Below are positions 1 to 61,300 of a DNA stretch of 64,000 nucleotides, piece by piece. The notes beneath the pieces were generated by a model. That model made no database searches. It saw only the letters and a program-made list of their open reading frames with translations, and was not told the DNA's origin. Source of the DNA: Hydrurus foetidus (lineage: Eukaryota); NCBI GenBank assembly GCA_900617105.1, contig UYFQ01000004.1, forward strand, positions 1 through 64,000. The letters are read 5' to 3'. Position numbers and translations under genes: made by a program. Within the stretch, counting starts at the first letter, position 1. Every line of letters starts with the position of its first letter.

Positions 1-90
1 CGCCGGGATTGCTACTCCCCTAAAGGTGGCCGGATCATGACAGAAAAAATTAAATTCTCGTCATTAGTCTTGCAGACTCAAGGGGCATTA

Positions 91-152
91 GCTATGAAAT
101 TAATAGCTGCTTGCGCTTATTCCATGTGGGCTATAGCCCTATTTCCCTTGAA
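91..152 (+). repeat. Dispersed ~63-bp motif, copy 1
   Basis: gctatgaaattaatagc tgcttgcgc ttattcc atgtgggctat agccctattt. Confidence 0.8.
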
Positions 153-960
153 TGATCGACTGCGCGAAACGCCAGAGGTATACCGCAAGGCTCACACCAG
201 CCACCACCGCGAGCACCATTTGTACGACGTGGTTTTCAGCAAAGTCCAACTCTTCGGTCAGCAGGTGGAAGATGGACAAAGCCACCAAGACTGCGGCAAT
301 GCGCAGCCCCCACGACGCGGGCGCGAATTGTTTTTCCGGCAAACGGATCCAGACTTGATGCCCCAGTAAACCGGAGAGCAGGCCCAGGCTGGCCCCCACC
401 GCCACATCGCCCGGCCAATGGGCGCCCACCGCAATACGGGACAGACCGGTACCAGCCGCCAGCACCAGCAGCCACCAGTGACGCCGACGTTGGGCCACCG
501 TAAGGGCAAAGTAGATGCCTGAGGCGACTGCAAACGCTGTCAAGGTATGGCCGGAGGGCATGGACACGTTGTGCAGCAACTCGCCCACCACGCGCATCTG
601 GGTGTTATCAACGACCGCAGCAGGGCGTGGGCTCTCAATGAAAAATTTGCCGGTACGTGCAAACAGCACCGCAAACGGTGCCGCACACAGCCACGCCACC
701 ATCAAACGGGGAGCGCACACCAGCAAGGGCGCAGTCACCGCCAGCAAGCCCCAGCCATTGCCCAAGAGGGACAAGCCGGTCCAAAACTCGGCGGCAACTG
801 GTGCGCCCCATTGGTTGATAGCGAGAAACATGCCGGGCTCCCACAGATGCAACCAAAACGGCGTGCCTAACACCAGGATCAGCAGGGGCAGCCACCAGAG
901 CCAGCGGGCAAGTGGGCTGGCAAGGGCGTGGGGCGTGGCGGGCGGGGTCAGCATGGTCAT
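139..960 (-). CDS. PAP2-family membrane phosphatase (undecaprenyl-PP / lipid A phosphatase-like)
   Basis: Motifs KxxxxxxRP (KFFIESPRP), SMPSGH and SRIAVGAHWPGDV; multiple TM segments. Start taken at ATG 960 (MTML); the longer ORF extension overlaps the upstream gene. Confidence 0.9.
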   Translation of the reverse strand: MTMLTPPATPHALASPLARWLWWLPLLILVLGTPFWLHLWEPGMFLAINQWGAPVAAEFWTGLSLLGNGWGLLAVTAPLLVCAPRLMVAWLCAAPFAVLFARTGKFFIESPRPAAVVDNTQMRVVGELLHNVSMPSGHTLTAFAVASGIYFALTVAQRRRHWWLLVLAAGTGLSRIAVGAHWPGDVAVGASLGLLSGLLGHQVWIRLPEKQFAPASWGLRIAAVLVALSIFHLLTEELDFAENHVVQMVLAVVAGVSLAVYLWRFAQSIIQGK

Positions 961-14813: not shown

Positions 14814-16031
14814 TCAGGCGGTGGTGGCGGGCTTGCGGCCGTAGTGTTGCACCAGCAGCGCCAGCGCGCCCGCCACGACGCCCCAGAACGCCGAGCCCAC
14901 GCCGGCAATGACCACGCCACTGAGCGTGACCAGGAAGGTGATGAGGGCGGCTTCGCGGTTGGCGTCGTCCTTGAGCGCAGCCGTCAGTGCGCCACCGATG
15001 GTGCCCAACAACGCCAGCCCCGCAATGGCGGCGACCAGTTCTTTGGGGAAGGCGGTGAGCACGCCCGTGATGGCGGCACCAAACAGGCCGATCACGATGT
15101 AAATGGCACCGCACGACACAGCGGCGGTGTAGCGACGTGCAGGGTTGCTGTGCGCCTCGGGTCCCATGCAGATGGCGGCGGTGATCGCGCTGAGGTTGAT
15201 GGCAAAAGCACCAAACGGTGCCAGCACCAACGTGGCCAGACCGGTGAGCGTGATGACCTTGGAAATGGGAATGCCTGCGTCGCCGCCTTGCGCGCGACGG
15301 TCCGCATAGCCAGCGGCCTGAATGGCGGCCACACCCGGCAGATTCTGCGAGGCCATGGTCACCACAAACAGGGGCAGCGACAGGCTGATGAAGGCTGCCA
15401 TCGAGAAGTGCGGGCTGATGAAGACTGGCCATGTCAAGCCAAAAGCGATGTCAGCCCGCGTAAAGCCTGCGCCACCAGCTACAAAAACAATAGCAACCAG
15501 CAGCGTAAGCGGCACGGCGTACCGAGGCGCAAAGCGCTTACCCAGCAGGTAGGCAACGACCATGGTGGCCACCAGGGGCAAGGCGGTTTGTGCGGCACCA
15601 AAGCCCGACAGGCCAAAGCGCGCCAGTACACCCGCCAACAGGGCCGAGGCCAGCGCCAGCGGAATCCGGTTCATCACCCGCTCAAACCAGCCGGTGGCGC
15701 CCACCAGGGTGATTAGCAGCGCACACAGGATGAAGGCGCCCACGGCGTCCGCCATGTTGAAGCCACCGGCCAGACCAGCAGACGCCAGCACGGCAGCACC
15801 GGGCGTGCTCCAGGCCACCATGACGGGTTTTTTGAGCCACAGCGAGGGAACCACGGTGCACAAACCCATGCCAATGCTCAGCGCCCACATCCACGAGGCG
15901 ATCATCTCGGGCGTGGCGCCAAAGGCCTGGGCCGCCTGGAAGACGATGGCCACCGAACTGGTAAAGCCCACCAGCACGGCCACAAAGCCAGCCGTGAAGG
16001 CCGAGAGACTCAGGTCTTTGAAAAACTGCAT
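14814..16031 (-). CDS. benE: BenE-family benzoate/H+ symporter
   Basis: AWSTPGAA, VTMASQNLPG, INLSAITAAIC, AFWG. Confidence 0.9.
   Translation of the reverse strand: MQFFKDLSLSAFTAGFVAVLVGFTSSVAIVFQAAQAFGATPEMIASWMWALSIGMGLCTVVPSLWLKKPVMVAWSTPGAAVLASAGLAGGFNMADAVGAFILCALLITLVGATGWFERVMNRIPLALASALLAGVLARFGLSGFGAAQTALPLVATMVVAYLLGKRFAPRYAVPLTLLVAIVFVAGGAGFTRADIAFGLTWPVFISPHFSMAAFISLSLPLFVVTMASQNLPGVAAIQAAGYADRRAQGGDAGIPISKVITLTGLATLVLAPFGAFAINLSAITAAICMGPEAHSNPARRYTAAVSCGAIYIVIGLFGAAITGVLTAFPKELVAAIAGLALLGTIGGALTAALKDDANREAALITFLVTLSGVVIAGVGSAFWGVVAGALALLVQHYGRKPATTA
15432..15494 (-). repeat. Dispersed ~63-bp motif, copy 2 (inside benE)
   Basis: gctattgtttttgtagc tggtggcgc aggcttt acgcgggctga catcgctttt. 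Confidence 0.8.
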
Positions 16032-19491: not shown

Positions 19492-20823
19492 TTAAGTGCG
19501 CACTTCGCCTTCGCCCAGCACCACGTACTTCAGCGAGGTCAGCCCCTCAATGCCCACCGGCCCGCGGGCGTGAAATTTGTCAGTGCTGATGCCGATTTCG
19601 GCACCCAGGCCAAATTCAAAGCCATCGGCAAAGCGCGTGCTGGTATTCACCATCACGCTGGCCGAGTCCACTTCGCGCAGGAAGCGCTGGGCGTGCATGT
19701 GGTCGCGCGTGAGGATGGCGTCGGTGTGGTGGCTGCTGTATTTGTTGATGTGGGCAATGGCTTCGTCCAAGCCGTCCACCACCTTGATGCTGACGATGGG
19801 CGCCAGGTACTCCTCGTACCAGTCGCTCTCCTGGGCAGGCACCAGGGCTCCCGCTCGGGCTGAGCCTGTCGAAGCCCCTGCGAGCCCTTCGACAGGCTCA
19901 GGGCGAACGGAGGTTTGAAGAATCGCCAGCGCCTCGGGGTCACAGCGCATCTCCACACCCTTGGCGGCATAGACCGCGCCGATCAGCGGCAAAAACTGGG
20001 CCGCCGCACCGCGCGCCACCAGCAGGCCTTCAGCGGCGTTGCAGGGGCTGTACTTGTTGGTCTTGGCGTTGTCTGCCACCTTGACGGCCATGGCGATGTC
20101 GCAGGGGTCGTCCACATACACATGGCAGTTGCCGTCCAGGTGCTTGATGACTGGCACCTTGGCGTCGCGGCTGATGCGCTCGATCAGGCCCTTGCCGCCG
20201 CGCGGAATGATCACATCCACATACTGCGGCATGGTGATGAGGTGGCCCACCACCTCGCGGTCGGTGGTCTGCACCAGTTGCACAGCGTCGGCAGGCAGGC
20301 CGGCTTCCTCCAGCGCCTGCTGCACCAGCTTGGCCAGCGCCTTGTTGGACTCAATCGCCTCGGAGCCGCCGCGCAGAATGCAGGCATTGCCGCTCTTGAT
20401 CGACAGGCTGGCCGCCTCAATCGTCACATTCGGGCGGCTCTCGAAAATCATGCCAAACACGCCAATCGGCACGCGCATCTGCCCCACACGGATACCGCTG
20501 GGCTGCTGCTTCATGCCAATGATCTCGCCAATCACATCGGCCATCGCCGCCAGCTGCTCGCAGCCCTGCGCACAGGTTTCCAGCACTTTGGGCGTCAATT
20601 TCAATCGGTCCACCATGGGCGCAGCCAGGCCGTTGGCGATGGCGCGCTCAATGTCTTTGGCGTTGTCCACCTGCAGCGCCGCCGTGTTCTCGCGCAGCAA
20701 GCGCGCCAGGGTGCGGAGCGCTACGTTTTTTGTAGCTGTCGGCGCGCGCGCCATGAGGGCTGAGGCCACTTTTGCCTGCAAACCGAGGGCGTGGGTGTAT
20801 TCGGTGATGTTGGTCGCATTCAT
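19492..20823 (-). CDS. proA: Gamma-glutamyl phosphate reductase, carrying an in-frame 20-codon palindromic insertion
   Basis: [50 protein letters not shown]. Confidence 0.96.
19851..19910. repeat. REP-like palindromic element in frame within proA
   Basis: 24-bp arms CCGCTCGGGCTGAGCCTGTCGAAG / CTTCGACAGGCTCAGGGCGAACGG (15-bp perfect core) around a 12-nt loop. Confidence 0.8.
20720..20782 (+). repeat. Dispersed ~63-bp motif, copy 3 (inside proA, antisense)
   Basis: gctacgttttttgtagc tgtcggcgc gcgcgcc atgagggctga ggccactttt. Confidence 0.8.
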
Positions 20824-22077: not shown

Positions 22078-22089
22078 CCTCTCAAGATT

Positions 22090-22152
22090 GCTCTTTATTT
22101 CATAGCTGCTCGCGCAGACTCCACGCTGGCTAGCTGCCAATTTGACCTGGAA
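22090..22152 (+). repeat. Dispersed ~63-bp motif, copy 4 (between convergent hxlR and holA)
   Basis: gctctttatttcatagc tgctcgcgc agactcc acgctggctag ctgccaattt. Confidence 0.8.
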
Positions 22153-23256
22153 TTAGCGCCTGAAAGCGCCCGCAGCAGCCGGCCCGGCGGCGCACAACGC
22201 ACACAGCTGCAGCGCCAGCCGATGCAGCGACTGCCAACCCGTGGTGGGCCAGTCGGGTTGCTTGAGGCCTTTGACGATGCCGTCCACCACATGGGCGGAT
22301 TGCAGCAGTTCGGCCAGTTTGGATTCGGAGAGCTTAGGCAGCACGCGCTCGAACAGGCGCTCTTTCGCACCCCAGATGCGGTTCTCGCGCAGGGCCATGG
22401 GCAGGGGGCGGCCCTGGGCCATGGCGTCTTTCACGCGCTTCAAGGCGCGAATGTCTTCAGCCAGCGTGTAGTGCACCAGCACCTCGGCTTCGCCCTCGGC
22501 CTGCAGGCCGTCCAGCATGCGCTGCACGCGCACGGCCTGGCCGGCCAGCACGGCTTCACTCAGCTTGAACACGTCGTAACGGGCCACGTTGAGCACGGCG
22601 CTTTCCACCTGCTCCAGCGTCAAGACGCCGCCCTTTTCTCCTGCTGCAGCATCTGCAGGAAACAGCAGCGCCAATTTTTGAATTTCCTGGTGCGCAGCCA
22701 GCAGATTGCCTTCCACGCGGTCGGCAAAAAACTGCAGGGTGCGCTGGCCTTCTTCGCCCGCTTCCACGCGTTGACCCTGGGCACCCAGGCGCTGGGCAAT
22801 CCACTGCGGCAAGACGCCGCGCTCCACCGGGCTGACTTCCAGCGTGATGCCATTGGCGTCCAGCGCGGCAAACCAGGCGCTGGACTTGGTCATCTTGTCC
22901 AGGCGCGGCAGCATGACGATGGTGAGCGTGGAGTCGTTGCCCTGGGCGCCTTCGGCCAGCTGCTGCAGCGCGACGCTGCCGTCCTTGCCCGGCTTGCCGC
23001 TGGGAATGCGGATTTCGACGATTTGCTTGTCGGCAAACAGGCTCAGCGAGCCGCCTGCGGCCAGCACCTCGCTCCAGTCAAAGTGGGCGCCGGCGACGGT
23101 GTGCGAGGTGCGCTCGGTGTAGCCATTGGCGCGGGCGTTGGCGCGGATCGCGTCCAGCGCCTCTTGCTGCAGCAGCGGCTCGTCCCCGTGCAAGGTGTAC
23201 AGGCTTTTGAGCCCGCGCTGCAGGTGGTTGCTGAGTTGGTTGGCCGCGAGTTGCAT
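22153..23256 (-). CDS. holA: DNA polymerase III subunit delta
   Basis: LYTLHGDEPLL, SLFADKQIVEIRIPSGKPGKDG, VEGNLLAAHQEIQKL. Confidence 0.95.
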   Translation of the reverse strand: MQLAANQLSNHLQRGLKSLYTLHGDEPLLQQEALDAIRANARANGYTERTSHTVAGAHFDWSEVLAAGGSLSLFADKQIVEIRIPSGKPGKDGSVALQQLAEGAQGNDSTLTIVMLPRLDKMTKSSAWFAALDANGITLEVSPVERGVLPQWIAQRLGAQGQRVEAGEEGQRTLQFFADRVEGNLLAAHQEIQKLALLFPADAAAGEKGGVLTLEQVESAVLNVARYDVFKLSEAVLAGQAVRVQRMLDGLQAEGEAEVLVHYTLAEDIRALKRVKDAMAQGRPLPMALRENRIWGAKERLFERVLPKLSESKLAELLQSAHVVDGIVKGLKQPDWPTTGWQSLHRLALQLCALCAAGPAAAGAFRR

Positions 23257-35925: not shown

Positions 35926-36915
35926 ATGCTCAATATCTTTACGCTCGCCAACGGTCGGCTCTTTCAGGAAGAGATCGAATCGCTGGAAGAGCTTTCCAAG
36001 TTCCAGCCTATCTGGGTCGACCTGGAATCCCCCACGATTGAAGAAAAACGCTGGGTCAAACAGTACTACGGCCTGTCCATCCCGGAAGACGCGATGGACG
36101 AGGACATCGAGGAATCCGCCCGTTTTTACGCTGAAGACAATGGCGAAGTTCACATTCGCAGCGACTTCTTAGTCGCAGACGCTGACGAGCCGCGCTCCGT
36201 GCGCGTGGCCTTTATCCTGAACCTGGTGAACGACGACTTGAAGAGCAAGGGCGTCCTGTTCTCGATCCACGACGAAGACGTGCCCGTATTCCGGCTTTTG
36301 CGCATGCGTGCACGCCGGGCACCGGGTTTGATTGAAGACGCCAAAGAAGTTTTGCTCAAGCTGTTCGACGCCGATGCCGAGTATTCCGCCGATACGCTGG
36401 AAGGCATTTACGACGAGCTGGACAAGGTCAGCAAGAAAGTCTTGTCTGGCAATGTCACGGATGCCATCGCCGGTGAGGCGCTGGGCGCCATTGCCCGCCA
36501 CGAAGACCTGAGTGGCCGCATTCGCCGCAATGTGATGGACACGCGCCGGGCCGTGAGCTTCATGATGCGCAGCAAGATGCTCAATGCCGAGCAGTTCGAG
36601 GAAGCGCGGCAGATTCTGCGCGATATCGACTCGTTGGACTCGCACACCGCCTTCCTGTTCGACAAGATCAACTTCTTGATGGACGCCACGGTTGGTTTCA
36701 TCAACATCAACCAGAACAAGATCATCAAGATCTTCTCGGTGGCCAGCGTGGCGCTACTGCCGCCCACCTTGGTGGCCAGTGTCTACGGCATGAACCTGAA
36801 ATTCCCGGAGCTGGAGTTTCTGGGCGGCTGGAGCTACCCCTACACCGTGGCCTTGATGGCGGCCAGCGCCGTGGTACCCATGTGGTACTTCTACAAACGC
36901 GGCTGGCTTCGATAG
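35926..36915 (+). CDS. corA: Magnesium/cobalt transporter CorA
   Basis: EDIEESARF, QNKIIKIFS, PPTLVASVYGMN. Confidence 0.96.
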   Translation: MLNIFTLANGRLFQEEIESLEELSKFQPIWVDLESPTIEEKRWVKQYYGLSIPEDAMDEDIEESARFYAEDNGEVHIRSDFLVADADEPRSVRVAFILNLVNDDLKSKGVLFSIHDEDVPVFRLLRMRARRAPGLIEDAKEVLLKLFDADAEYSADTLEGIYDELDKVSKKVLSGNVTDAIAGEALGAIARHEDLSGRIRRNVMDTRRAVSFMMRSKMLNAEQFEEARQILRDIDSLDSHTAFLFDKINFLMDATVGFININQNKIIKIFSVASVALLPPTLVASVYGMNLKFPELEFLGGWSYPYTVALMAASAVVPMWYFYKRGWLR

Positions 36916-36970
36916 GAAATCGCCTTCTAACCCGCGTATTTATTGCGCAAGCAGCTACTATTTTGATAGT
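36908..36970 (-). repeat. Dispersed ~63-bp motif, copy 5 (spans the corA and mtnN stops)
   Basis: actatcaaaatagtagc tgcttgcgc aataaat acgcgggttag aaggcgattt. Confidence 0.8.
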
Positions 36971-37719
36971 GCCTCAAGCAACGCCCGGATGATTTTCCTG
37001 GCGTACACGCTGGCCACCTCGGCCACAAACTGGCTGAAATCCAGATGCGCGCTGTCGTCGGCCCGGTCCGAGATGGTGCGCACTGCGGCAAACGGCACGC
37101 CGTAGTCCACACACACCTGGGCCACGGCGGCACCTTCCATTTCCACCGCCAACGGCGTGTGACCCGCTGCAGCGAGCTGCCCCACCAGCGTAGCCACCTC
37201 GGCCGCGCCATTGACAAAGCGGTCGCCACTGGCGATTAGGCCGCAGTGCACTGTTGGGGCTCGGCCCTTTTGGTGCATGCCGACCAAAGCGGCTTCTGCG
37301 GCGCGTTGCAAGGCGCCGCACAGCACCGCATCCCCCGCAAACAACGCCTGGCCATACAGCGGAATCTCATACCGTGGAAACAGCGGAGAGGCATCCATGT
37401 CGTGCTGCACGTAGGACGTACCCACCACCACATCCCCCACCTGCACGCCGTCTCCAACGCCACCGGCCACACCGGTGAACACCACGCGGCCCACGCCAAA
37501 GTGGCCAATCAGCGCCGTGGCCGTGGTGGCAGCCGCCACCTTGCCAATGCGCGATAGCGCCAGCACCACCGGTTGGCCCCACAGGCTGCCGCACCAGAAG
37601 ATGCGCCCTGCGTGATCGACCTGTCGCGCGTTCTCCAGAAACTCCAGGAGTCCGGCCTGTTCTTCGGCCAGGGCGCTCAGGATGGCAATGGGGGCAGGGG
37701 TTACAGCAGCAACGGGCAT
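36958..37719 (-). CDS. mtnN: 5'-methylthioadenosine/S-adenosylhomocysteine nucleosidase
   Basis: IGKVAAA, FTGVAGG, ASGDRF, VEMEGAAVAQV, RTISDRAD. Confidence 0.92.
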   Translation of the reverse strand: MPVAAVTPAPIAILSALAEEQAGLLEFLENARQVDHAGRIFWCGSLWGQPVVLALSRIGKVAAATTATALIGHFGVGRVVFTGVAGGVGDGVQVGDVVVGTSYVQHDMDASPLFPRYEIPLYGQALFAGDAVLCGALQRAAEAALVGMHQKGRAPTVHCGLIASGDRFVNGAAEVATLVGQLAAAGHTPLAVEMEGAAVAQVCVDYGVPFAAVRTISDRADDSAHLDFSQFVAEVASVYARKIIRALLEALSK

Positions 37720-42800: not shown

Positions 42801-43298
42801 ATGGACACACGATGGAAACCCAATGTGACGGTCGCCGCCGTCATTGAGCAACATGGCCGCTTTCTGCTAGTGGAAGAACACACGCCCGAAGGCCTGCGCC
42901 TGAACAACCCGGCAGGGCACCTGGACGCGGCCGAGTCACCGGCTCAGGGTTGTTCCCGAGAGGTATTAGAGGAAACGGCCTATGCCTTCACGCCCAACTA
43001 TCTAGTCGGCCTGTACCTGTCGCGCTTTCAGCGCCAGCGCGCCGACGCACTGGAAGACGTGACCTATTTGCGCTTTGCCTACGCGGGCACCCTGGGTGCC
43101 TTCGACGCTGAGCGCACGCTGGACACCGGCATTGAACGCACCGTCTGGCTGAGCGCCGACGAGCTGCGCGCCAGCCATGCCCGCCACCGCAGCCCGCTGG
43201 TGCTGCAGTGCATGGAGGACTATTTGCGTGGCCAACGCTACCCGCTGGAGCTGGTCTACGCCGCCGCCAGTCTCTGGAATCCTGCCACTCCGCTATAA
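42801..43298 (+). CDS. nudJ: NUDIX hydrolase (NudJ-like)
   Basis: [16 protein letters not shown]...REVLEET, HRSPLV; upstream of mnmA. Confidence 0.85.
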
Positions 43299-43354
43299 AA
43301 AAAGGAGCTGCTAGCGCAATATGGACGGGGGCTAAGGGCTTTTTTGGTGCATAA
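43292..43354 (+). repeat. Dispersed ~63-bp motif, copy 6 (nudJ stop to mnmA upstream)
   Basis: gctataaaaaaaggagc tgctagcgc aatatgg acgggggctaa gggctttttt. Confidence 0.8.
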
Positions 43355-43388
43355 ACCCCGCCTCCACGGCCCCCGGTAAAATGAGGGC

Positions 43389-49311: not shown

Positions 49312-52300
49312 ATGGCTGCCAATCAAGTTTCCGCCCAAGCACGTGGTGTTGTCGTCGTTCTACAAGGCAACGCCTGGATCGTGAACCCGGACGGTAGTCG
49401 CAAAGTACTGCACTTGGGCGATGAGGTACAAGAAGGCCAAGTCATTGCCACAGAAGATGGCACACGGCTCGAACTGGCCATGCCCCATGACCAGCTCATT
49501 ACGGTCGAATCCGGCCGCGAACTGCTGATTGACGCAAACCTGCTGGGAAGCCTCAAGACAGACCCCACAGAAGCCGCGCTCAAAGACCTGAATAGTGGTG
49601 CAGAGGCCGTTGCCAAAGTCCTGGCCAGTGGCACGGGCGACCTATCAGCAGAGTTGGATGCTACCGCCGCTGGCCTCTCCGGTGGAGATGCCAGCGACTC
49701 ACACAGCTTTGTCCGCTTGCTTCGCATCAGCGAAGAATTGACGTCACTTGGCATCCAACGCGATAACAACCAACCAGACTCAGCAGAATTTGACCCCACT
49801 GGTGCTACGAATCCGCCTTCCGGCACCACCGCGTCTGGAACGACAACACCACCTGGCGCCCCCAGCGTCACTATTCCAGATGACAACGGACCGGGTTTTT
49901 CCGGGAACAAGACTGTCGCCGAGACCGATGGCCCCATCCCCGGCAAATTCACGGTCACCGCCCCTGCGGGCTTGGTCAGTATTTCCGTGGGTGGCACCAC
50001 GCTCAGCGCCGCCAACCTCTCCGCACTGGACACGACCCCAGTCACCATCACCACCGCCGATGGTAAGTTGGTGCTCAATGGCTACTCTGCGGCCACCGGC
50101 ACGGTCAGCTATACCTTTGATCCCGTGGTGCACACCTCCAATGCCTCCGTCACGGCGGTCTTGCCGATCACCGCCACCGATTCCCTGGGCACCACCAGCC
50201 CTTCCAACAGTCTGAACATCGTCATCACCGACAGCCAGCCCGTCGCCCTCAATGACTCCGCCTCGGTCACCGAGGACGCCACGCCCAATACGGTCACTGG
50301 CTCCGTGCTCTCCAACGACACCGTGGGCGCCGATTCCAACGCCAACCCCGTCACCGCAGCCAACGTCACCCTGGCACACGGCGCCCTGGTGCTCAATGCC
50401 GATGGCTCTTACACCTATACGCTGGACAACACTAATGCGGCCGTCAACGCCCTGAACAACGGCCAGACGCTCACCGATTCCTATACCTACACGCTGACCG
50501 ATGGCGACGCCTCCACCACTACCGCCTCCCTGTCCATCACCATCAATGGCTCCAACGATGTGCCCACCATCGGCTCCGGTGTGGGCGTGAGCTCCGGCTC
50601 CGCGCTGGAAGCCGGGGGCGTGGCCAACGCCGTCTTGGGCTCCCCCAACACGGGCGGCACCCTCTCCATCAACGATGCCGATTCCGCTCAGTCCAGCTTC
50701 ACCGCTCCCGCCCCTGCCAGCCTCACAGGCACTTACGGCACCTTCACTTTCAACGCCAGCTCCGGCGTGTGGTCCTACGCGCTGGATAACACCAAGCCCG
50801 CCACCCAGGCCCTCAACGCCGCCCAGGTGGTGCATGACACCCTGACGGTCACCAGCCTGGACGGCTCCGCCAGCCGCACCATCGATGTCACCGTCACCGG
50901 GGCCAACGACACCGCCGCCATCACCGGCTCCTCCACCGGCACCATGGCCGAAGACACCAGCGTCACCTCCGGCAACCTCACCACCAGCGGCACCCTCTCC
51001 GTCGCCGATGTCGACTTCGGTCAGGCCGTCTTTGCAACCCCCGCCACGCTGGCAGGTACCTACGGCTCCTTTACGTTTGACACCACCTCCGGTGCCTGGA
51101 CCTACGCCGCCAACAACGCACAAAGCGCCGTGCAGGCCCTGGGTCTGGGTCAGTCCCTCACCGACACCATCACCGTCAAGAGCTTGGATGGCACCGCCTC
51201 CCAAGCCATCACCGTCACCATCAATGGCTCCAACGATGTGCCCACCATCGGCTCCGGTGTGGGCGTGAGCTCCGGCTCCGCGCTGGAAGCCGGGGGCGTG
51301 GCCAACGCCGTCTTGGGCTCCCCCAACACGGGCGGCACCCTCTCCATCAACGATGCCGATTCCGCTCAGTCCAGCTTCACCGCTCCCGCCCCTGCCAGCC
51401 TCACAGGCACTTACGGCACCTTCACTTTCAACGCCAGCTCCGGCGTGTGGTCCTACGCGCTGGATAACACCAAGCCCGCCACCCAGGCCCTCAACGCCGC
51501 CCAGGTGGTGCATGACACCCTGACGGTCACCAGCCTGGACGGCTCCGCCAGCCGCACCATCGATGTCACCGTCACCGGGGCCAACGACACCGCCGCCATC
51601 ACCGGCTCCTCCACCGGCACCATGGCCGAAGACACCAGCGTCACCTCCGGCAACCTCACCACCAGCGGCACCCTCTCCGTCGCCGATGTCGACTTCGGTC
51701 AGGCCGTCTTTGCAACCCCCGCCACGCTGGCAGGTACCTACGGCTCCTTTACGTTTGACACCACCTCCGGTGCCTGGACCTACGCCGCCAACAACGCACA
51801 AAGCGCCGTGCAGGCCCTGGGTCTGGGTCAGTCCCTCACCGACACCATCACCGTCAAGAGCTTGGATGGCACTGCCTCCCAAGCCATCACCGTCACCATC
51901 AATGGCTCCAACGATGTGCCCACCATCGGCTCCGGTGTGGGCGTGAGCTCCGGCTCCGCGCTGGAAGCCGGGGGCGTGGCCAACGCCGTCTTGGGCTCCC
52001 CCAACACGGGCGGCACCCTCTCCATCAACGATGCCGATTCCGCTCAGTCCAGCTTCACCGCTCCCGCCCCTGCCAGCCTCACAGGCACTTACGGCACCTT
52101 CACTTTCAACGCCAGCTCCGGCGTGTGGTCCTACGCGCTGGATAACACCAAGCCCGCCACCCAGGCCCTCAACGCCGCCCAGGTGGTGCATGACACCCTG
52201 ACGGTCACCAGCCTGGACGGCTCCGCCAGCCGCACCATCGATGTCACCGTCACCGGGGCCAACGACACCGCCGCCATCACCGGCTCCTCCACCGGCACCA

Positions 52301-55300
52301 TGGCCGAAGACACCAGCGTCACCTCCGGCAACCTCACCACCAGCGGCACCCTCTCCGTCGCCGATGTCGACTTCGGTCAGGCCGTCTTTGCAACCCCCGC
52401 CACGCTGGCAGGTACCTACGGCTCCTTTACGTTTGACACCACCTCCGGTGCCTGGACCTACGCCGCCAACAACGCACAAAGCGCCGTGCAGGCCCTGGGT
52501 CTGGGTCAGTCCCTCACCGACACCATCACCGTCAAGAGCTTGGATGGCACTGCCTCCCAAGCCATCACCGTCACCATCAATGGCTCCAACGATGTGCCCA
52601 CCATCGGCTCCGGTGTGGGCGTGAGCTCCGGCTCCGCGCTGGAAGCCGGGGGCGTGGCCAACGCCGTCTTGGGCTCCCCCAACACGGGCGGCACCCTCTC
52701 CATCAACGATGCCGATTCCGCTCAGTCCAGCTTCACCGCTCCCGCCCCTGCCAGCCTCACAGGCACTTACGGCACCTTCACTTTCAACGCCAGCTCCGGC
52801 GTGTGGTCCTACGCGCTGGATAACACCAAGCCCGCCACCCAGGCCCTCAACGCCGCCCAGGTGGTGCATGACACCCTGACGGTCACCAGCCTGGACGGCT
52901 CCGCCAGCCGCACCATCGATGTCACCGTCACCGGGGCCAACGACACCGCCGCCATCACCGGCTCCTCCACCGGCACCATGGCCGAAGACACCAGCGTCAC
53001 CTCCGGCAACCTCACCACCAGCGGCACCCTCTCCGTCGCCGATGTCGACTTCGGTCAGGCCGTCTTTGCAACCCCCGCCACGCTGGCAGGTACCTACTGC
53101 TCCTTTACGTTTGACACCACCTCCGGTGCCTGGACCTACGCCGCCAACAACGCACAAAGCGCCGTGCAGGCCCTGGGTCTGGGTCAGTCCCTCACCGACA
53201 CCATCACCGTCAAGAGCTTGGATGGCACCGCCTCCCAAGCCATCACCGTCACCATCAATGGCTCCAACGATGTGCCCACCATCGGCTCCGGTGTGGGCGT
53301 GAGCTCCGGCTCCGCGCTGGAAGCCGGGGGCGTGGCCAACGCCGTCTTGGGCTCCCCCAACACGGGCGGCACCCTCTCCATCAACGATGCCGATTCCGCT
53401 CAGTCCAGCTTCACCGCTCCCGCCCCTGCCAGCCTCACAGGCACTTACGGCACCTTCACTTTCAACGCCAGCTCCGGCGTGTGGTCCTACGCGCTGGATA
53501 ACACCAAGCCCGCCACCCAGGCCCTCAACGCCGCCCAGGTGGTGCATGACACCCTGACGGTCACCAGCCTGGACGGCTCCGCCAGCCGCACCATCGATGT
53601 CACCGTCACCGGGGCCAACGACACCGCCGCCATCACCGGCTCCTCCACCGGCACCATGGCCGAAGACACCAGCGTCACCTCCGGCAACCTCACCACCAGC
53701 GGCACCCTCTCCGTCGCCGATGTCGACTTCGGTCAGGCCGTCTTTGCAACCCCCGCCACGCTGGCAGGTACCTACGGCTCCTTTACGTTTGACACCACCT
53801 CCGGTGCCTGGACCTACGCCGCCAACAACGCACAAAGCGCCGTGCAGGCCCTGGGTCTGGGTCAGTCCCTCACCGACACCATCACCGTCAAGAGCTTGGA
53901 TGGCACTGCCTCCCAAGCCATCACCGTCACCATCAATGGCTCCAACGATGTGCCCACCATCGGCTCCGGTGTGGGCGTGAGCTCCGGCTCCGCGCTGGAA
54001 GCCGGGGGCGTGGCCAACGCCGTCTTGGGCTCCCCCAACACGGGCGGCACCCTCTCCATCAACGATGCCGATTCCGCTCAGTCCAGCTTCACCGCTCCCG
54101 CCCCTGCCAGCCTCACAGGCACTTACGGCACCTTCACTTTCAACGCCAGCTCCGGCGTGTGGTCCTACGCGCTGGATAACACCAAGCCCGCCACCCAGGC
54201 CCTCAACGCCGCCCAGGTGGTGCATGACACCCTGACGGTCACCAGCCTGGACGGCTCCGCCAGCCGCACCATCGATGTCACCGTCACCGGGGCCAACGAC
54301 ACCGCCGCCATCACCGGCTCCTCCACCGGCACCATGGCCGAAGACACCAGCGTCACCTCCGGCAACCTCACCACCAGCGGCACCCTCTCCGTCGCCGATG
54401 TCGACTTCGGTCAGGCCGTCTTTGCAACCCCCGCCACGCTGGCAGGTACCTACGGCTCCTTTACGTTTGACACCACCTCCGGTGCCTGGACCTACGCCGC
54501 CAACAACGCACAAAGCGCCGTGCAGGCCCTGGGTCTGGGTCAGTCCCTCACCGACACCATCACCGTCAAGAGCTTGGATGGCACCGCCTCCCAAGCCATC
54601 ACCGTCACCATCAATGGCTCCAACGATGTGCCCACCATCGGCTCCGGTGTGGGCGTGAGCTCCGGCTCCGCGCTGGAAGCCGGGGGCGTGGCCAACGCCG
54701 TCTTGGGCTCCCCCAACACGGGCGGCACCCTCTCCATCAACGATGCCGATTCCGCTCAGTCCAGCTTCACCGCTCCCGCCCCTGCCAGCCTCACAGGCAC
54801 TTACGGCACCTTCACTTTCAACGCCAGCTCCGGCGTGTGGTCCTACGCGCTGGATAACACCAAGCCCGCCACCCAGGCCCTCAACGCCGCCCAGGTGGTG
54901 CATGACACCCTGACGGTCACCAGCCTGGACGGCTCCGCCAGCCGCACCATCGATGTCACCGTCACCGGGGCCAACGACACCGCCGCCATCACCGGCTCCT
55001 CCACCGGCACCATGGCCGAAGACACCAGCGTCACCTCCGGCAACCTCACCACCAGCGGCACCCTCTCCGTCGCCGATGTCGACTTCGGTCAGGCCGTCTT
55101 TGCAACCCCCGCCACGCTGGCAGGTACCTACGGCTCCTTTACGTTTGACACCACCTCCGGTGCCTGGACCTACGCCGCCAACAACGCACAAAGCGCCGTG
55201 CAGGCCCTGGGTCTGGGTCAGTCCCTCACCGACACCATCACCGTCAAGAGCTTGGATGGCACTGCCTCCCAAGCCATCACCGTCACCATCAATGGCTCCA

Positions 55301-58300
55301 ACGATGTGCCCACCATCGGCTCCGGTGTGGGCGTGAGCTCCGGCTCCGCGCTGGAAGCCGGGGGCGTGGCCAACGCCGTCTTGGGCTCCCCCAACACGGG
55401 CGGCACCCTCTCCATCAACGATGCCGATTCCGCTCAGTCCAGCTTCACCGCTCCCGCCCCTGCCAGCCTCACAGGCACTTACGGCACCTTCACTTTCAAC
55501 GCCAGCTCCGGCGTGTGGTCCTACGCGCTGGATAACACCAAGCCCGCCACCCAGGCCCTCAACGCCGCCCAGGTGGTGCATGACACCCTGACGGTCACCA
55601 GCCTGGACGGCTCCGCCAGCCGCACCATCGATGTCACCGTCACCGGGGCCAACGACACCGCCGCCATCACCGGCTCCTCCACCGGCACCATGGCCGAAGA
55701 CACCAGCGTCACCTCCGGCAACCTCACCACCAGCGGCACCCTCTCCGTCGCCGATGTCGACTTCGGTCAGGCCGTCTTTGCAACCCCCGCCACGCTGGCA
55801 GGTACCTACGGCTCCTTTACGTTTGACACCACCTCCGGTGCCTGGACCTACGCCGCCAACAACGCACAAAGCGCCGTGCAGGCCCTGGGTCTGGGTCAGT
55901 CCCTCACCGACACCATCACCGTCAAGAGCTTGGATGGCACTGCCTCCCAAGCCATCACCGTCACCATCAATGGCTCCAACGATGTGCCCACCATCGGCTC
56001 CGGTGTGGGCGTGAGCTCCGGCTCCGCGCTGGAAGCCGGGGGCGTGGCCAACGCCGTCTTGGGCTCCCCCAACACGGGCGGCACCCTCTCCATCAACGAT
56101 GCCGATTCCGCTCAGTCCAGCTTCACCGCTCCCGCCCCTGCCAGCCTCACAGGCACTTACGGCACCTTCACTTTCAACGCCAGCTCCGGCGTGTGGTCCT
56201 ACGCGCTGGATAACACCAAGCCCGCCACCCAGGCCCTCAACGCCGCCCAGGTGGTGCATGACACCCTGACGGTCACCAGCCTGGACGGCTCCGCCAGCCG
56301 CACCATCGATGTCACCGTCACCGGGGCCAACGACACCGCCGCCATCACCGGCTCCTCCACCGGCACCATGGCCGAAGACACCAGCGTCACCTCCGGCAAC
56401 CTCACCACCAGCGGCACCCTCTCCGTCGCCGATGTCGACTTCGGTCAGGCCGTCTTTGCAACCCCCGCCACGCTGGCAGGTACCTACGGCTCCTTTACGT
56501 TTGACACCACCTCCGGTGCCTGGACCTACGCCGCCAACAACGCACAAAGCGCCGTGCAGGCCCTGGGTCTGGGTCAGTCCCTCACCGACACCATCACCGT
56601 CAAGAGCTTGGATGGCACCGCCTCCCAAGCCATCACCGTCACCATCAATGGCTCCAACGATGTGCCCACCATCGGCTCCGGTGTGGGCGTGAGCTCCGGC
56701 TCCGCGCTGGAAGCCGGGGGCGTGGCCAACGCCGTCTTGGGCTCCCCCAACACGGGCGGCACCCTCTCCATCAACGATGCCGATTCCGCTCAGTCCAGCT
56801 TCACCGCTCCCGCCCCTGCCAGCCTCACAGGCACTTACGGCACCTTCACTTTCAACGCCAGCTCCGGCGTGTGGTCCTACGCGCTGGATAACACCAAGCC
56901 CGCCACCCAGGCCCTCAACGCCGCCCAGGTGGTGCATGACACCCTGACGGTCACCAGCCTGGACGGCTCCGCCAGCCGCACCATCGATGTCACCGTCACC
57001 GGGGCCAACGACACCGCCGCCATCACCGGCTCCTCCACCGGCACCATGGCCGAAGACACCAGCGTCACCTCCGGCAACCTCACCACCAGCGGCACCCTCT
57101 CCGTCGCCGATGTCGACTTCGGTCAGGCCGTCTTTGCAACCCCCGCCACGCTGGCAGGTACCTACGGCTCCTTTACGTTTGACACCACCTCCGGTGCCTG
57201 GACCTACGCCGCCAACAACGCACAAAGCGCCGTGCAGGCCCTGGGTCTGGGTCAGTCCCTCACCGACACCATCACCGTCAAGAGCTTGGATGGCACTGCC
57301 TCCCAAGCCATCACCGTCACCATCAATGGCTCCAACGATGTGCCCACCATCGGCTCCGGTGTGGGCGTGAGCTCCGGCTCCGCGCTGGAAGCCGGGGGCG
57401 TGGCCAACGCCGTCTTGGGCTCCCCCAACACGGGCGGCACCCTCTCCATCAACGATGCCGATTCCGCTCAGTCCAGCTTCACCGCTCCCGCCCCTGCCAG
57501 CCTCACAGGCACTTACGGCACCTTCACTTTCAACGCCAGCTCCGGCGTGTGGTCCTACGCGCTGGATAACACCAAGCCCGCCACCCAGGCCCTCAACGCC
57601 GCCCAGGTGGTGCATGACACCCTGACGGTCACCAGCCTGGACGGCTCCGCCAGCCGCACCATCGATGTCACCGTCACCGGGGCCAACGACACCGCCGCCA
57701 TCACCGGCTCCTCCACCGGCACCATGGCCGAAGACACCAGCGTCACCTCCGGCAACCTCACCACCAGCGGCACCCTCTCCGTCGCCGATGTCGACTTCGG
57801 TCAGGCCGTCTTTGCAACCCCCGCCACGCTGGCAGGTACCTACGGCTCCTTTACGTTTGACACCACCTCCGGTGCCTGGACCTACGCCGCCAACAACGCA
57901 CAAAGCGCCGTGCAGGCCCTGGGTCTGGGTCAGTCCCTCACCGACACCATCACCGTCAAGAGCTTGGATGGCACCGCCTCCCAAGCCATCACCGTCACCA
58001 TCAATGGCTCCAACGATGTGCCCACCATCGGCTCCGGTGTGGGCGTGAGCTCCGGCTCCGCGCTGGAAGCCGGGGGCGTGGCCAACGCCGTCTTGGGCTC
58101 CCCCAACACGGGCGGCACCCTCTCCATCAACGATGCCGATTCCGCTCAGTCCAGCTTCACCGCTCCCGCCCCTGCCAGCCTCACAGGCACTTACGGCACC
58201 TTCACTTTCAACGCCAGCTCCGGCGTGTGGTCCTACGCGCTGGATAACACCAAGCCCGCCACCCAGGCCCTCAACGCCGCCCAGGTGGTGCATGACACCC

Positions 58301-61300
58301 TGACGGTCACCAGCCTGGACGGCTCCGCCAGCCGCACCATCGATGTCACCGTCACCGGGGCCAACGACACCGCCGCCATCACCGGCTCCTCCACCGGCAC
58401 CATGGCCGAAGACACCAGCGTCACCTCCGGCAACCTCACCACCAGCGGCACCCTCTCCGTCGCCGATGTCGACTTCGGTCAGGCCGTCTTTGCAACCCCC
58501 GCCACGCTGGCAGGTACCTACGGCTCCTTTACGTTTGACACCACCTCCGGTGCCTGGACCTACGCCGCCAACAACGCACAAAGCGCCGTGCAGGCCCTGG
58601 GTCTGGGTCAGTCCCTCACCGACACCATCACCGTCAAGAGCTTGGATGGCACTGCCTCCCAAGCCATCACCGTCACCATCAATGGCTCCAACGATGTGCC
58701 CACCATCGGCTCCGGTGTGGGCGTGAGCTCCGGCTCCGCGCTGGAAGCCGGGGGCGTGGCCAACGCCGTCTTGGGCTCCCCCAACACGGGCGGCACCCTC
58801 TCCATCAACGATGCCGATTCCGCTCAGTCCAGCTTCACCGCTCCCGCCCCTGCCAGCCTCACAGGCACTTACGGCACCTTCACTTTCAACGCCAGCTCCG
58901 GCGTGTGGTCCTACGCGCTGGATAACACCAAGCCCGCCACCCAGGCCCTCAACGCCGCCCAGGTGGTGCATGACACCCTGACGGTCACCAGCCTGGACGG
59001 CTCCGCCAGCCGCACCATCGATGTCACCGTCACCGGGGCCAACGACACCGCCGCCATCACCGGCTCCTCCACCGGCACCATGGCCGAAGACACCAGCGTC
59101 ACCTCCGGCAACCTCACCACCAGCGGCACCCTCTCCGTCGCCGATGTCGACTTCGGTCAGGCCGTCTTTGCAACCCCCGCCACGCTGGCAGGTACCTACG
59201 GCTCCTTTACGTTTGACACCACCTCCGGTGCCTGGACCTACGCCGCCAACAACGCACAAAGCGCCGTGCAGGCCCTGGGTCTGGGTCAGTCCCTCACCGA
59301 CACCATCACCGTCAAGAGCTTGGATGGCACCGCCTCCCAAGCCATCACCGTCACCATCAATGGCTCCAACGATGTGCCCACCATCGGCTCCGGTGTGGGC
59401 GTGAGCTCCGGCTCCGCGCTGGAAGCCGGGGGCGTGGCCAACGCCGTCTTGGGCTCCCCCAACACGGGCGGCACCCTCTCCATCAACGATGCCGATTCCG
59501 CTCAGTCCAGCTTCACCGCTCCCGCCCCTGCCAGCCTCACAGGCACTTACGGCACCTTCACTTTCAACGCCAGCTCCGGCGTGTGGTCCTACGCGCTGGA
59601 TAACACCAAGCCCGCCACCCAGGCCCTCAACGCCGCCCAGGTGGTGCATGACACCCTGACGGTCACCAGCCTGGACGGCTCCGCCAGCCGCACCATCGAT
59701 GTCACCGTCACCGGGGCCAACGACACCGCCGCCATCACCGGCTCCTCCACCGGCACCATGGCCGAAGACACCAGCGTCACCTCCGGCAACCTCACCACCA
59801 GCGGCACCCTCTCCGTCGCCGATGTCGACTTCGGTCAGGCCGTCTTTGCAACCCCCGCCACGCTGGCAGGTACCTACGGCTCCTTTACGTTTGACACCAC
59901 CTCCGGTGCCTGGACCTACGCCGCCAACAACGCACAAAGCGCCGTGCAGGCCCTGGGTCTGGGTCAGTCCCTCACCGACACCATCACCGTCAAGAGCTTG
60001 GATGGCACCGCCTCCCAAGCCATCACCGTCACCATCAATGGCTCCAACGATGTGCCCACCATCGGCTCCGGTGTGGGCGTGAGCTCCGGCTCCGCGCTGG
60101 AAGCCGGGGGCGTGGCCAACGCCGTCTTGGGCTCCCCCAACACGGGCGGCACCCTCTCCATCAACGATGCCGATTCCGCTCAGTCCAGCTTCACCGCTCC
60201 CGCCCCTGCCAGCCTCACAGGCACTTACGGCACCTTCACTTTCAACGCCAGCTCCGGCGTGTGGTCCTACGCGCTGGATAACACCAAGCCCGCCACCCAG
60301 GCCCTCAACGCCGCCCAGGTGGTGCATGACACCCTGACGGTCACCAGCCTGGACGGCTCCGCCAGCCGCACCATCGATGTCACCGTCACCGGGGCCAACG
60401 ACACCGCCGCCATCACCGGCTCCTCCACCGGCACCATGGCCGAAGACACCAGCGTCACCTCCGGCAACCTCACCACCAGCGGCACCCTCTCCGTCGCCGA
60501 TGTCGACTTCGGTCAGGCCGTCTTTGCAACCCCCGCCACGCTGGCAGGTACCTACGGCTCCTTTACGTTTGACACCACCTCCGGTGCCTGGACCTACGCC
60601 GCCAACAACGCACAAAGCGCCGTGCAGGCCCTGGGTCTGGGTCAGTCCCTCACCGACACCATCACCGTCAAGAGCTTGGATGGCACTGCCTCCCAAGCCA
60701 TCACCGTCACCATCAATGGCTCCAACGATGTGCCCACCATCGGCTCCGGTGTGGGCGTGAGCTCCGGCTCCGCGCTGGAAGCCGGGGGCGTGGCCAACGC
60801 CGTCTTGGGCTCCCCCAACACGGGCGGCACCCTCTCCATCAACGATGCCGATTCCGCTCAGTCCAGCTTCACCGCTCCCGCCCCTGCCAGCCTCACAGGC
60901 ACTTACGGCACCTTCACTTTCAACGCCAGCTCCGGCGTGTGGTCCTACGCGCTGGATAACACCAAGCCCGCCACCCAGGCCCTCAACGCCGCCCAGGTGG
61001 TGCATGACACCCTGACGGTCACCAGCCTGGACGGCTCCGCCAGCCGCACCATCGATGTCACCGTCACCGGGGCCAACGACACCGCCGCCATCACCGGCTC
61101 CTCCACCGGCACCATGGCCGAAGACACCAGCGTCACCTCCGGCAACCTCACCACCAGCGGCACCCTCTCCGTCGCCGATGTCGACTTCGGTCAGGCCGTC
61201 TTTGCAACCCCCGCCACGCTGGCAGGTACCTACGGCTCCTTTACGTTTGACACCACCTCCGGTGCCTGGACCTACGCCGCCAACAACGCACAAAGCGCCG

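Follow-up and report, generated by a model that had tools for sequence, protein, structure and literature searches.

A full-length copy of a 66-bp DNA motif of Comamonadaceae lies within the codons of proA without an apparent insertion

The proA gene of the window (the whole stretch of 64,000 nucleotides that was analysed) carries, at positions 20719–20784 of the forward strand, a full-length copy of a fixed-length 66-bp motif that lies antisense to codons 14–35. The copy occupies these codons without an indel and, judging from sequence comparison, we lean towards its being held there by selection as a site at which a host protein would bind duplex DNA. The DNA signals known so far to overwrite genes are of 8–10 bp, and long repeats in genes are insertions; here 66 bp lie in a helix common to distant ProA enzymes, with the length unchanged and with amino-acid changes that have outlasted the motif. 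The gene (19492–20823, minus strand) encodes glutamate-5-semialdehyde dehydrogenase of 443 amino acids (above cut-off for both NCBIfam PRK00197, at 585 bits, and TIGR00407), with the ATG start placed by orthologue alignment.

The best-conserved part of the motif, by sequence and by column profile, is the left dyad GCTAY-N7-RTAGC, which is found at 20720–20736 (forward strand, as are the parts that follow) as GCTAC-N7-GTAGC. The central box pair GCGC-N11-G(G/C)GCT occupies 20742–20761 (GCGC at 20742–20745, GGGCT at 20757–20761), and its G/C position, 20758, is a lineage "dialect" base that in proA is the silent third position of an alanine codon. A weak third box with a T-tract spans 20764–20784, the T-tract itself (20770–20773) being supplied by the AAA codon of Lys18. 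The closest named relative of the window is Rhodoferax saidenbachensis (G001), of which 800 kb yielded 116 copies for a scoring matrix. This matrix gave the proA copy 37.4 bits, and a second one, with proA copies left out of the training, gave it 41.7 bits; the control maxima at equal length were −4.8 bits (reversed) and −1.0 bits (Markov-5). The copy is full length yet weaker than most, as 104 of the 116 training copies exceed 40 bits. A repeat finder pairs it with the copy at 15437–15494. Synonymous recodings were generated with the protein fixed and the codons drawn from usage in the remainder of proA, and none of 3000 reached the score of the actual sequence (mean −24.6, sd 9.6, z 6.5).

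Codons 14–35 are ungapped in all 81 ProA sequences of Comamonadaceae, in all 29 of other Burkholderiales (the outgroup) and against the structures PDB 4GHK and 8ZOK; the alignment with 1O20 begins only at residue 22. The initial annotation had described a complete motif copy, antisense in the 5′ region of proA, on a helix that is a normal part of the enzyme and in which the motif would have arisen through codon and residue choice, not by insertion. At proA each of these points is supported by the alignments and the matrix; the annotated peptide, in turn, overruns codons 14–35 by two codons.

The manner in which the copy is written into the gene is visible codon by codon. The residues G14, A17, A20, S21, M24, A25 and N33, invariant or nearly so in the outgroup, survive in motif-rich genomes (those with at least two copies per Mb), and non-coding copies read in the proA frame mostly encode other residues at these seven positions. 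The retention of seven ancestral residues inside the copy makes a wholesale paste unlikely. Silent changes give most of the match, namely GCA17 (in 23 of the 34 rich genomes), AAA18 (32), GCG27 (31), GCT30 (31) and AAA32 (33), and codon 34 in rich genomes is an A-ending codon for K, R, I or V. Two replacements, R18K and R22A, each create a motif box and are both family-wide: R18 (29/29 outgroups) is K, encoded by AAA, in 32 of the 34 rich genomes, and R22 (27/29 outgroups) is A in all 34. Both outlast the motif, with K in 28 and A in 26 of 33 motif-free species. With synonymous codons chosen for the best match, the median score is 16 bits in the outgroups, 42 bits in motif-free and 57 bits in rich Comamonadaceae; the outgroup median falls in the top 1.2% of 170,970 coding windows, with the actual outgroup scores at −24 to −95 bits. 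The alanine-rich helix of ProA may have been pre-adapted to the motif. Conversion in the ancestor of the family would have been piecemeal, by point changes or by short patches from other copies, and would have been followed by repeated loss on several branches, the codons reverting to G/C. We infer this order of ancestral gain and repeated loss from the sequences, its polarity being weakened by the bias of the sample toward close relatives; the absence of half-sites sits uneasily with a gradual origin.

Genome-wide figures were taken from relatives, namely the 80 genomes that supplied the proA loci and the 800 kb of G001; these 80 were picked for their proximity to the query, and many of their assemblies are incomplete. 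The ungapped matrix of 66 columns settled on the 116 copies in G001, one per 6.9 kb, or about 640 copies per genome if this density is extrapolated. A scan of positions 1–50500 of the window with the matrix gave six copies, the one in proA among them. The others lie at 90–155 (forward, 68 bits), 15430–15495 (reverse), 22089–22154 (forward, 59–65 bits, between two convergent gene ends), 36906–36971 (reverse, 52–60 bits) and 43291–43356 (forward, 61–67 bits). The copy at 15430–15495 is in sense, and without an indel, on a membrane transporter gene (14814–16031), which we take to be BenE-like; the site spans 59 amino acids in all 33 orthologues shown and holds the motif in some clades only. A strict pattern found 0 to 364 copies across the 80 genomes (controls 0–2), and none of 400 genomes sampled across the class, one unpublished genome (G119) included, had more than three matches, which equals the control level.

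The highest identity between any two of the 116 copies is 83%. Weak or half sites show no excess in masked DNA, where one left-half site was found with a matrix trained on separate sequence; copies of the motif are all-or-none. In G001 their spacing is slightly even (CV 0.84, p 0.035), many adjoin gene 3′ ends and just two lie between divergent genes. With our own hexamer ORF caller, 51 of the 116 fall wholly inside called ORFs, 24 in sense and 27 in antisense, mostly in two frames (antisense frame 0 and sense frame 2) and in genes of mixed function. Each genome has a few hundred such genes, proA among them, so that the motif probably has nothing to do with proline. Viral contigs contain at least 122 stretches with the motif, often in Ala/Pro-rich linkers; four of these contigs (L144, L152, L157 and L125) carry very large phage ORFs (about 1100–2000 amino acids) with one or two copies each in flexible linkers. 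Double-headed sites, in which two opposed copies share a single left dyad, were noticed in G051:C1 (725043–725077, 851538–851572, 3197524–3197558 and 179401–179435).

The state of proA follows that of the genome. The overlay on proA is significant (p < 0.01) in 32 of 34 motif-rich genomes, compared to 7 of 46 motif-poor ones (Fisher 3.7e-13), and motif density shows no relation to GC3 (rho 0.03). A tree was built from proA DNA without both repeat sites, and independent contrasts over its 79 nodes gave an r of 0.72 for this association. The tree has a weak backbone, with 36 of 78 branches starred, and places 13 changes in the state of the genome and 11 in that of proA. A stricter independent-pairs test was not significant: over 8 starred pairs a mean of 4.1 changed the same way, 0 the opposite way and 3.9 not at all (median p 0.125). 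Sister pairs behave as predicted (L047/L070 against L054, L057 against L061, L019/L072 against L009/L010); Acidovorax L047 and L070 keep the proA copy, and in their sister L054 the codons at this place are the usual G/C ones, with the other four alignable copies missing as well. The exceptions are L058 and L017, which are motif-positive without a proA copy, and seven motif-poor genomes that keep it; two of these seven (L019 and L054) score higher with looser patterns. Within rich genomes the A/T share of four-fold sites is 0.43 in the motif and 0.10 in the remaining proA. The same pattern between rich and free genomes is seen in leuS, and in comEC a copy is present in 13 rich-genome loci and absent from one short rich locus, with one weak match in 16 motif-free loci. 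A further motif copy makes up the spacer that follows proA in motif-rich Acidovorax (L031 3116, L047 and L070 11283); in motif-free L054 the spacer is about as long but unrelated in sequence.

The upkeep of the motif was examined between G001 and G005, both motif-rich, which share 43/43 and 42/45 alignable motif sites. With two-copy genes counted once per copy, four-fold sites are identical at 119 of 139 informative columns (86%), compared to 4616 of 6671 outside the motif (69%, p 1.5e-5); at uninformative columns the figure is 97/151 (64%), which is neutral-like. A/T third positions are kept in 75 of 80 cases versus 227 of 882. The uninformative columns keep site-specific bases (80%, versus 30% between unrelated copies), and protein conservation is lower under the motif (76–78% versus 93%). 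This pattern is one of position-wise purifying pressure, not of wholesale homogenisation. The initial annotation had proposed a check for excess synonymous conservation at motif positions, in lineages that carry the motif genome-wide. The excess is present, and, the seven motif-poor exceptions apart, the rare A/T-ending codons of proA persist only in genomes that have the motif throughout. Its wider claim, selection at the DNA level, stands in so far as silent sites are conserved, whereas on the present data selection on a bound site is indistinguishable from a drive by biased recombination.

The dialect base bears on the same question. Coding copies have C in 24 cases and G in 3 among C-dialect genomes, and C in 5 and G in 58 among G-dialect genomes, thus matching the genome dialect in 82 of 90 G or C cases with a codon default that favours the G state in both groups, and the proA base matches its own genome in 26 of 29 cases; with no more than about four dialect shifts on the tree, these counts are non-independent and their p-values overstated. 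One Acidovorax genome that is otherwise motif-free has five copies of the other (G) dialect within 31 kb (G054:C15:364320–395042), possibly an island from a motif-rich donor.

At the left edge of the motif the replication strand matters. With the leading strand assigned from GC skew, 103 of 114 leading-strand copies have T immediately in front of GCTAY, compared to 55 of 119 on the lagging strand (p 1.6e-13); among 384 tests this was the strongest result, and its direction is the same in G001, G005 and G068. The odds ratio in G001 is about 12, compared to 1.2–1.45 at ordinary four-fold sites, with coding and non-coding copies alike. The proA copy, a member of the lagging class, is free at this base. 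In G051 the GCTAC variant changes strand mid-contig (8:34, then 28:6), the breakpoint near 2.33 Mb being post hoc; a terminus-site pattern had no match in this genome. The replichore-dependent base suggests that a reader or a mutational process meets the motif in a fork-polar manner: either selection varies with the direction of the fork, or one template is hypermutable at this end. Chi, KOPS, matS and SBS are recognised by orientation skew or by exclusion from, or enrichment at, the terminus. The 66-bp motif has neither trait, as leading-strand copies number 52/116 and 39/85, 29 and 28 copies lie within 100 kb of the skew switch, and copies are even along G051 C1 (p 0.29).

Origin differs from site to site. 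Indels were assessed at 11 of 14 G001 sites, the three with fewer than two motif-free orthologues being left out. Four sites differ by at most two codons and five by 4–12, with differences of 0, 0 and 5 in selO and of 3, 3 and −2 in prmB, and none by 22; net in-frame gains are found at five of the 11, and a sixth is mixed. The four indel-free sites keep 19 of 25 ancestral residues, where 1.6 would be expected from a paste. Between genes, G005 and G001 differ at one site by about 58 bp, and this gain, together with the in-frame ones, requires copying and not point mutation. In one hypothetical gene with the motif at the same place, L057 has no indel, L066 has seven extra codons and L068 is weak. 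Substitution in place of insertion, as first proposed for proA, thus describes the first proA site and four others, and does not describe those sites, the second one in proA of relatives among them, at which copies bring net gains of 3–18 codons. A mixture, with copying for some births and selection for upkeep, is plausible.

ProA itself has a second repeat site, in a surface loop at about codons 302–326 (19846–19920, minus strand), where another palindromic repeat with two inverted arms is read in frame and adds 17 residues to the protein. We presume this repeat to be of the CGTC type of REP. In many relatives the same loop holds the 66-bp motif, with a net gain of 14–18 codons. In the contigs of near-identical strains 66–67 nt, of which the length alone is known, replace the 75–76 nt of this site, and the motif-bearing allele of L001 likewise measures 66–67 nt. 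By comparison of lengths and not of letters, a replacement of one repeat by the other may have taken place here. Half of the palindromic repeat is present at the same loop in L019.

We propose that a putative host protein binds the 66-mer as double-stranded DNA and that selection keeps each site. None of four candidate partners (RAYT, ComEC, a ComP-like pilin and C5-methylase) follows the motif across 25 rich and 25 free genomes, which tells against this proposal. Three dyad-like boxes, with A/T tracts about 11 or 22 bp apart, would suit a multimeric reader, the role of which would be chromosome-wide and not in proline synthesis. More tentatively, a 66-bp all-or-none signal of Comamonadaceae, with a fork-polar candidate reader that varies between sisters, may have rewritten a few hundred genes per genome and those of resident phages, as an overprinted code longer than uptake sequences or HIP1. 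Patches of rare codons and odd residues in Comamonadaceae genes may then reflect a DNA signal and not translation or protein function, and the existence of sister species with and without the motif makes the reader findable by subtraction.

The selected-site reading has to be weighed against a drive like that of uptake sequences, in which DNA with a better motif is preferentially taken up and recombined, so that the motif accumulates in tolerant sequence without benefit to any site. We consider such a drive unlikely, despite many resemblances. The overlay on genes, frame preference, lower protein conservation, dialects and even spacing all match the USS of Pasteurellaceae and the DUS of Neisseriaceae, which are described (PMC2817400, in the portion covered) as present in hundreds of copies in both orientations, many in preferred gene frames, fairly evenly spaced, and originating by mutation and recombination rather than insertion. 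All 50 genomes tested have ComEC, Ala/Pro-rich linkers on phage contigs contain copies, and four of ten gaps longer than 14 kb in G001 have a GC3 of 0.69–0.76 compared to 0.79 overall. The cores of USS and DUS are however non-palindromic and of 9–10 bp, in contrast to a 66-bp dyad motif that is all-or-none, shows neither half sites nor an excess of near misses, and has net insertions at some of its copies. The distribution of competence genes does not follow that of the motif, ComEC being present in 25/25 rich and 25/25 free genomes and a ComP-like pilin (ComP_DUS) in 22/25 and 23/25. Finally, uptake outside the cell gives no reason to expect a base that depends on the replichore.

An old mobile element of the REP or RPE kind, which replaced its target and was later domesticated, would make the proA copy an equal-length paste that has partly reverted; this we regard as rather unlikely. 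Such an element would account for the net gains of 3–18 codons and of 58 bp between genes, for near-consensus copies in poorly conserved helices such as that of selO, and for the exchange of 66–67 for 75–76 nt at the second proA site, and a fork-strand effect fits single-strand enzymes. Copies flank the RAYT gene on both sides in two of 13 rich loci inspected, with one copy on each side in G016 (L460, G016:C65) and one strong and one weak copy in G015 (L474, G015:C107), in the same orientation in both cases. Considering all genomes tested, RAYT (Y1_Tnp) does not track the motif (24/25 rich, 23/25 free); most family members have a conserved single RAYT, with terminal repeats of its own, upstream of a conserved gene that is presumably gltB. 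The seven ancestral residues at proA and the 19 of 25 at four other sites, the absence of a full 22-codon insertion at all 11 sites, the lack of near-identical copies and of stem covariation, and the site-specific bases at uninformative columns also argue against a mobile element. A MITE, marked by terminal inverted repeats, target duplication and young identical copies, was rejected on the highest pairwise identity (83% among 116) and on a single empty site without a clean target duplication.

Rickettsia palindromic elements, as summarised in the portion of PMC10969869 covered, are also family-restricted and lie in frame inside unrelated housekeeping genes, but are insertions of about 150 bp; the motif adds 0 codons at the first proA site and at most 14–18 of 22 at the second, and is a full-length insertion at 0 of 11 G001 sites. 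The RAYT-associated REP families GTAG and CGTC (PMC3733652, in part) share with it short dyads near gene 3′ ends, some intragenic, and the word RTAG; the 66-bp motif differs in that no stem covariation, no doublets or arrays and no near-identical copies were seen. The main text of PMC3733652, as far as covered, does not name Acidovorax, Polaromonas, Rhodoferax or Comamonas. The BRE of Bordetella and Comamonadaceae is likewise a betaproteobacterial repeat with some copies in genes, and differs, by its description in the covered part of PMC3110155 and not by sequence, in being about 90 bp, about 69% GC, tandem and at most 29 copies per genome.

That the motif is an RNA or single-strand hairpin (a terminator or stabiliser) tolerated in genes is largely refuted and very improbable. 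The three dyad-like segments, the copies at gene 3′ ends and the two between divergent genes would fit it, a like bias being reported in the covered portion of PMC5217627. Among the 116 copies, stem covariation was absent at 26 of 27 tested pairs, with an excess at one, and the left dyad pairs no better than after shuffling; coding copies lie about as often in sense (24) as in antisense (27), and Rfam gave no match in positions 1–50500. The strongest column couplings are neighbouring AA/TT steps. Loop-flipping, prompted by reverse-complement loop variants in G068, was discarded, both strands of one site having been counted. Chance resemblance from an alanine-rich helix and codon usage, to which the pre-adapted residues of ProA (median best synonymous scores of 16 bits for outgroups and 42 bits for motif-free members of the Comamonadaceae) lend some colour, is refuted by the z of 6.5, the outgroup scores of −24 to −95 bits and the A/T share of 0.43 versus 0.10.

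A parallel for a selected site is the HIP1 of cyanobacteria. It is described (PMC5861425, in part) as conserved by selection within and between ORFs, without a peptide or RNA role and with a proposed function in chromosome structure, but is an 8-bp palindrome with associated methylases, compared to 66 bp, patchy within one family, here. Orthologous sites of the 66-bp motif inside ORFs are likewise conserved beyond the neutral level, and C5-methylases (PF00145) do not track it (8/25 rich, 14/25 free genomes). Sites of LysR-type regulators consist of a T-N11-A dyad plus weaker downstream boxes and are bound upstream of promoters; the left dyad of the motif contains T-N11-A, but its copies avoid divergent spacers.

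Searches of the open-access literature with exact motif strings and by topic found no description of the whole 66-bp element. Tong, Schliekelman and Mrazek 2017 (PMC5217627, in part) list spaced pentamer pairs as potential novel motifs with no known function, among them GCTTAT(N5)AAGCG in Acidovorax ebreus and ATAGCT(N22)CAAAAG in Polaromonas naphthalenivorans, both of which fit columns of the 66-bp motif; the largest number of pairs, 140, was in R. ferrireducens, with an average of 34% in genes. In the portion of that paper covered, the pairs are not joined into a 66-bp unit, nor is there an analysis of orthologues, indels, selection, dialect or strand.

A separate feature of the window lies downstream of the scanned part. 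Positions 50534–64000 consist of twenty 678-bp units reported as 100% identical, a perfect identity that may be real or an effect of assembly. The units form one open frame and encode a Thr/Ser/Gly-rich adhesin-like repeat, which we take to be VCBS-like.
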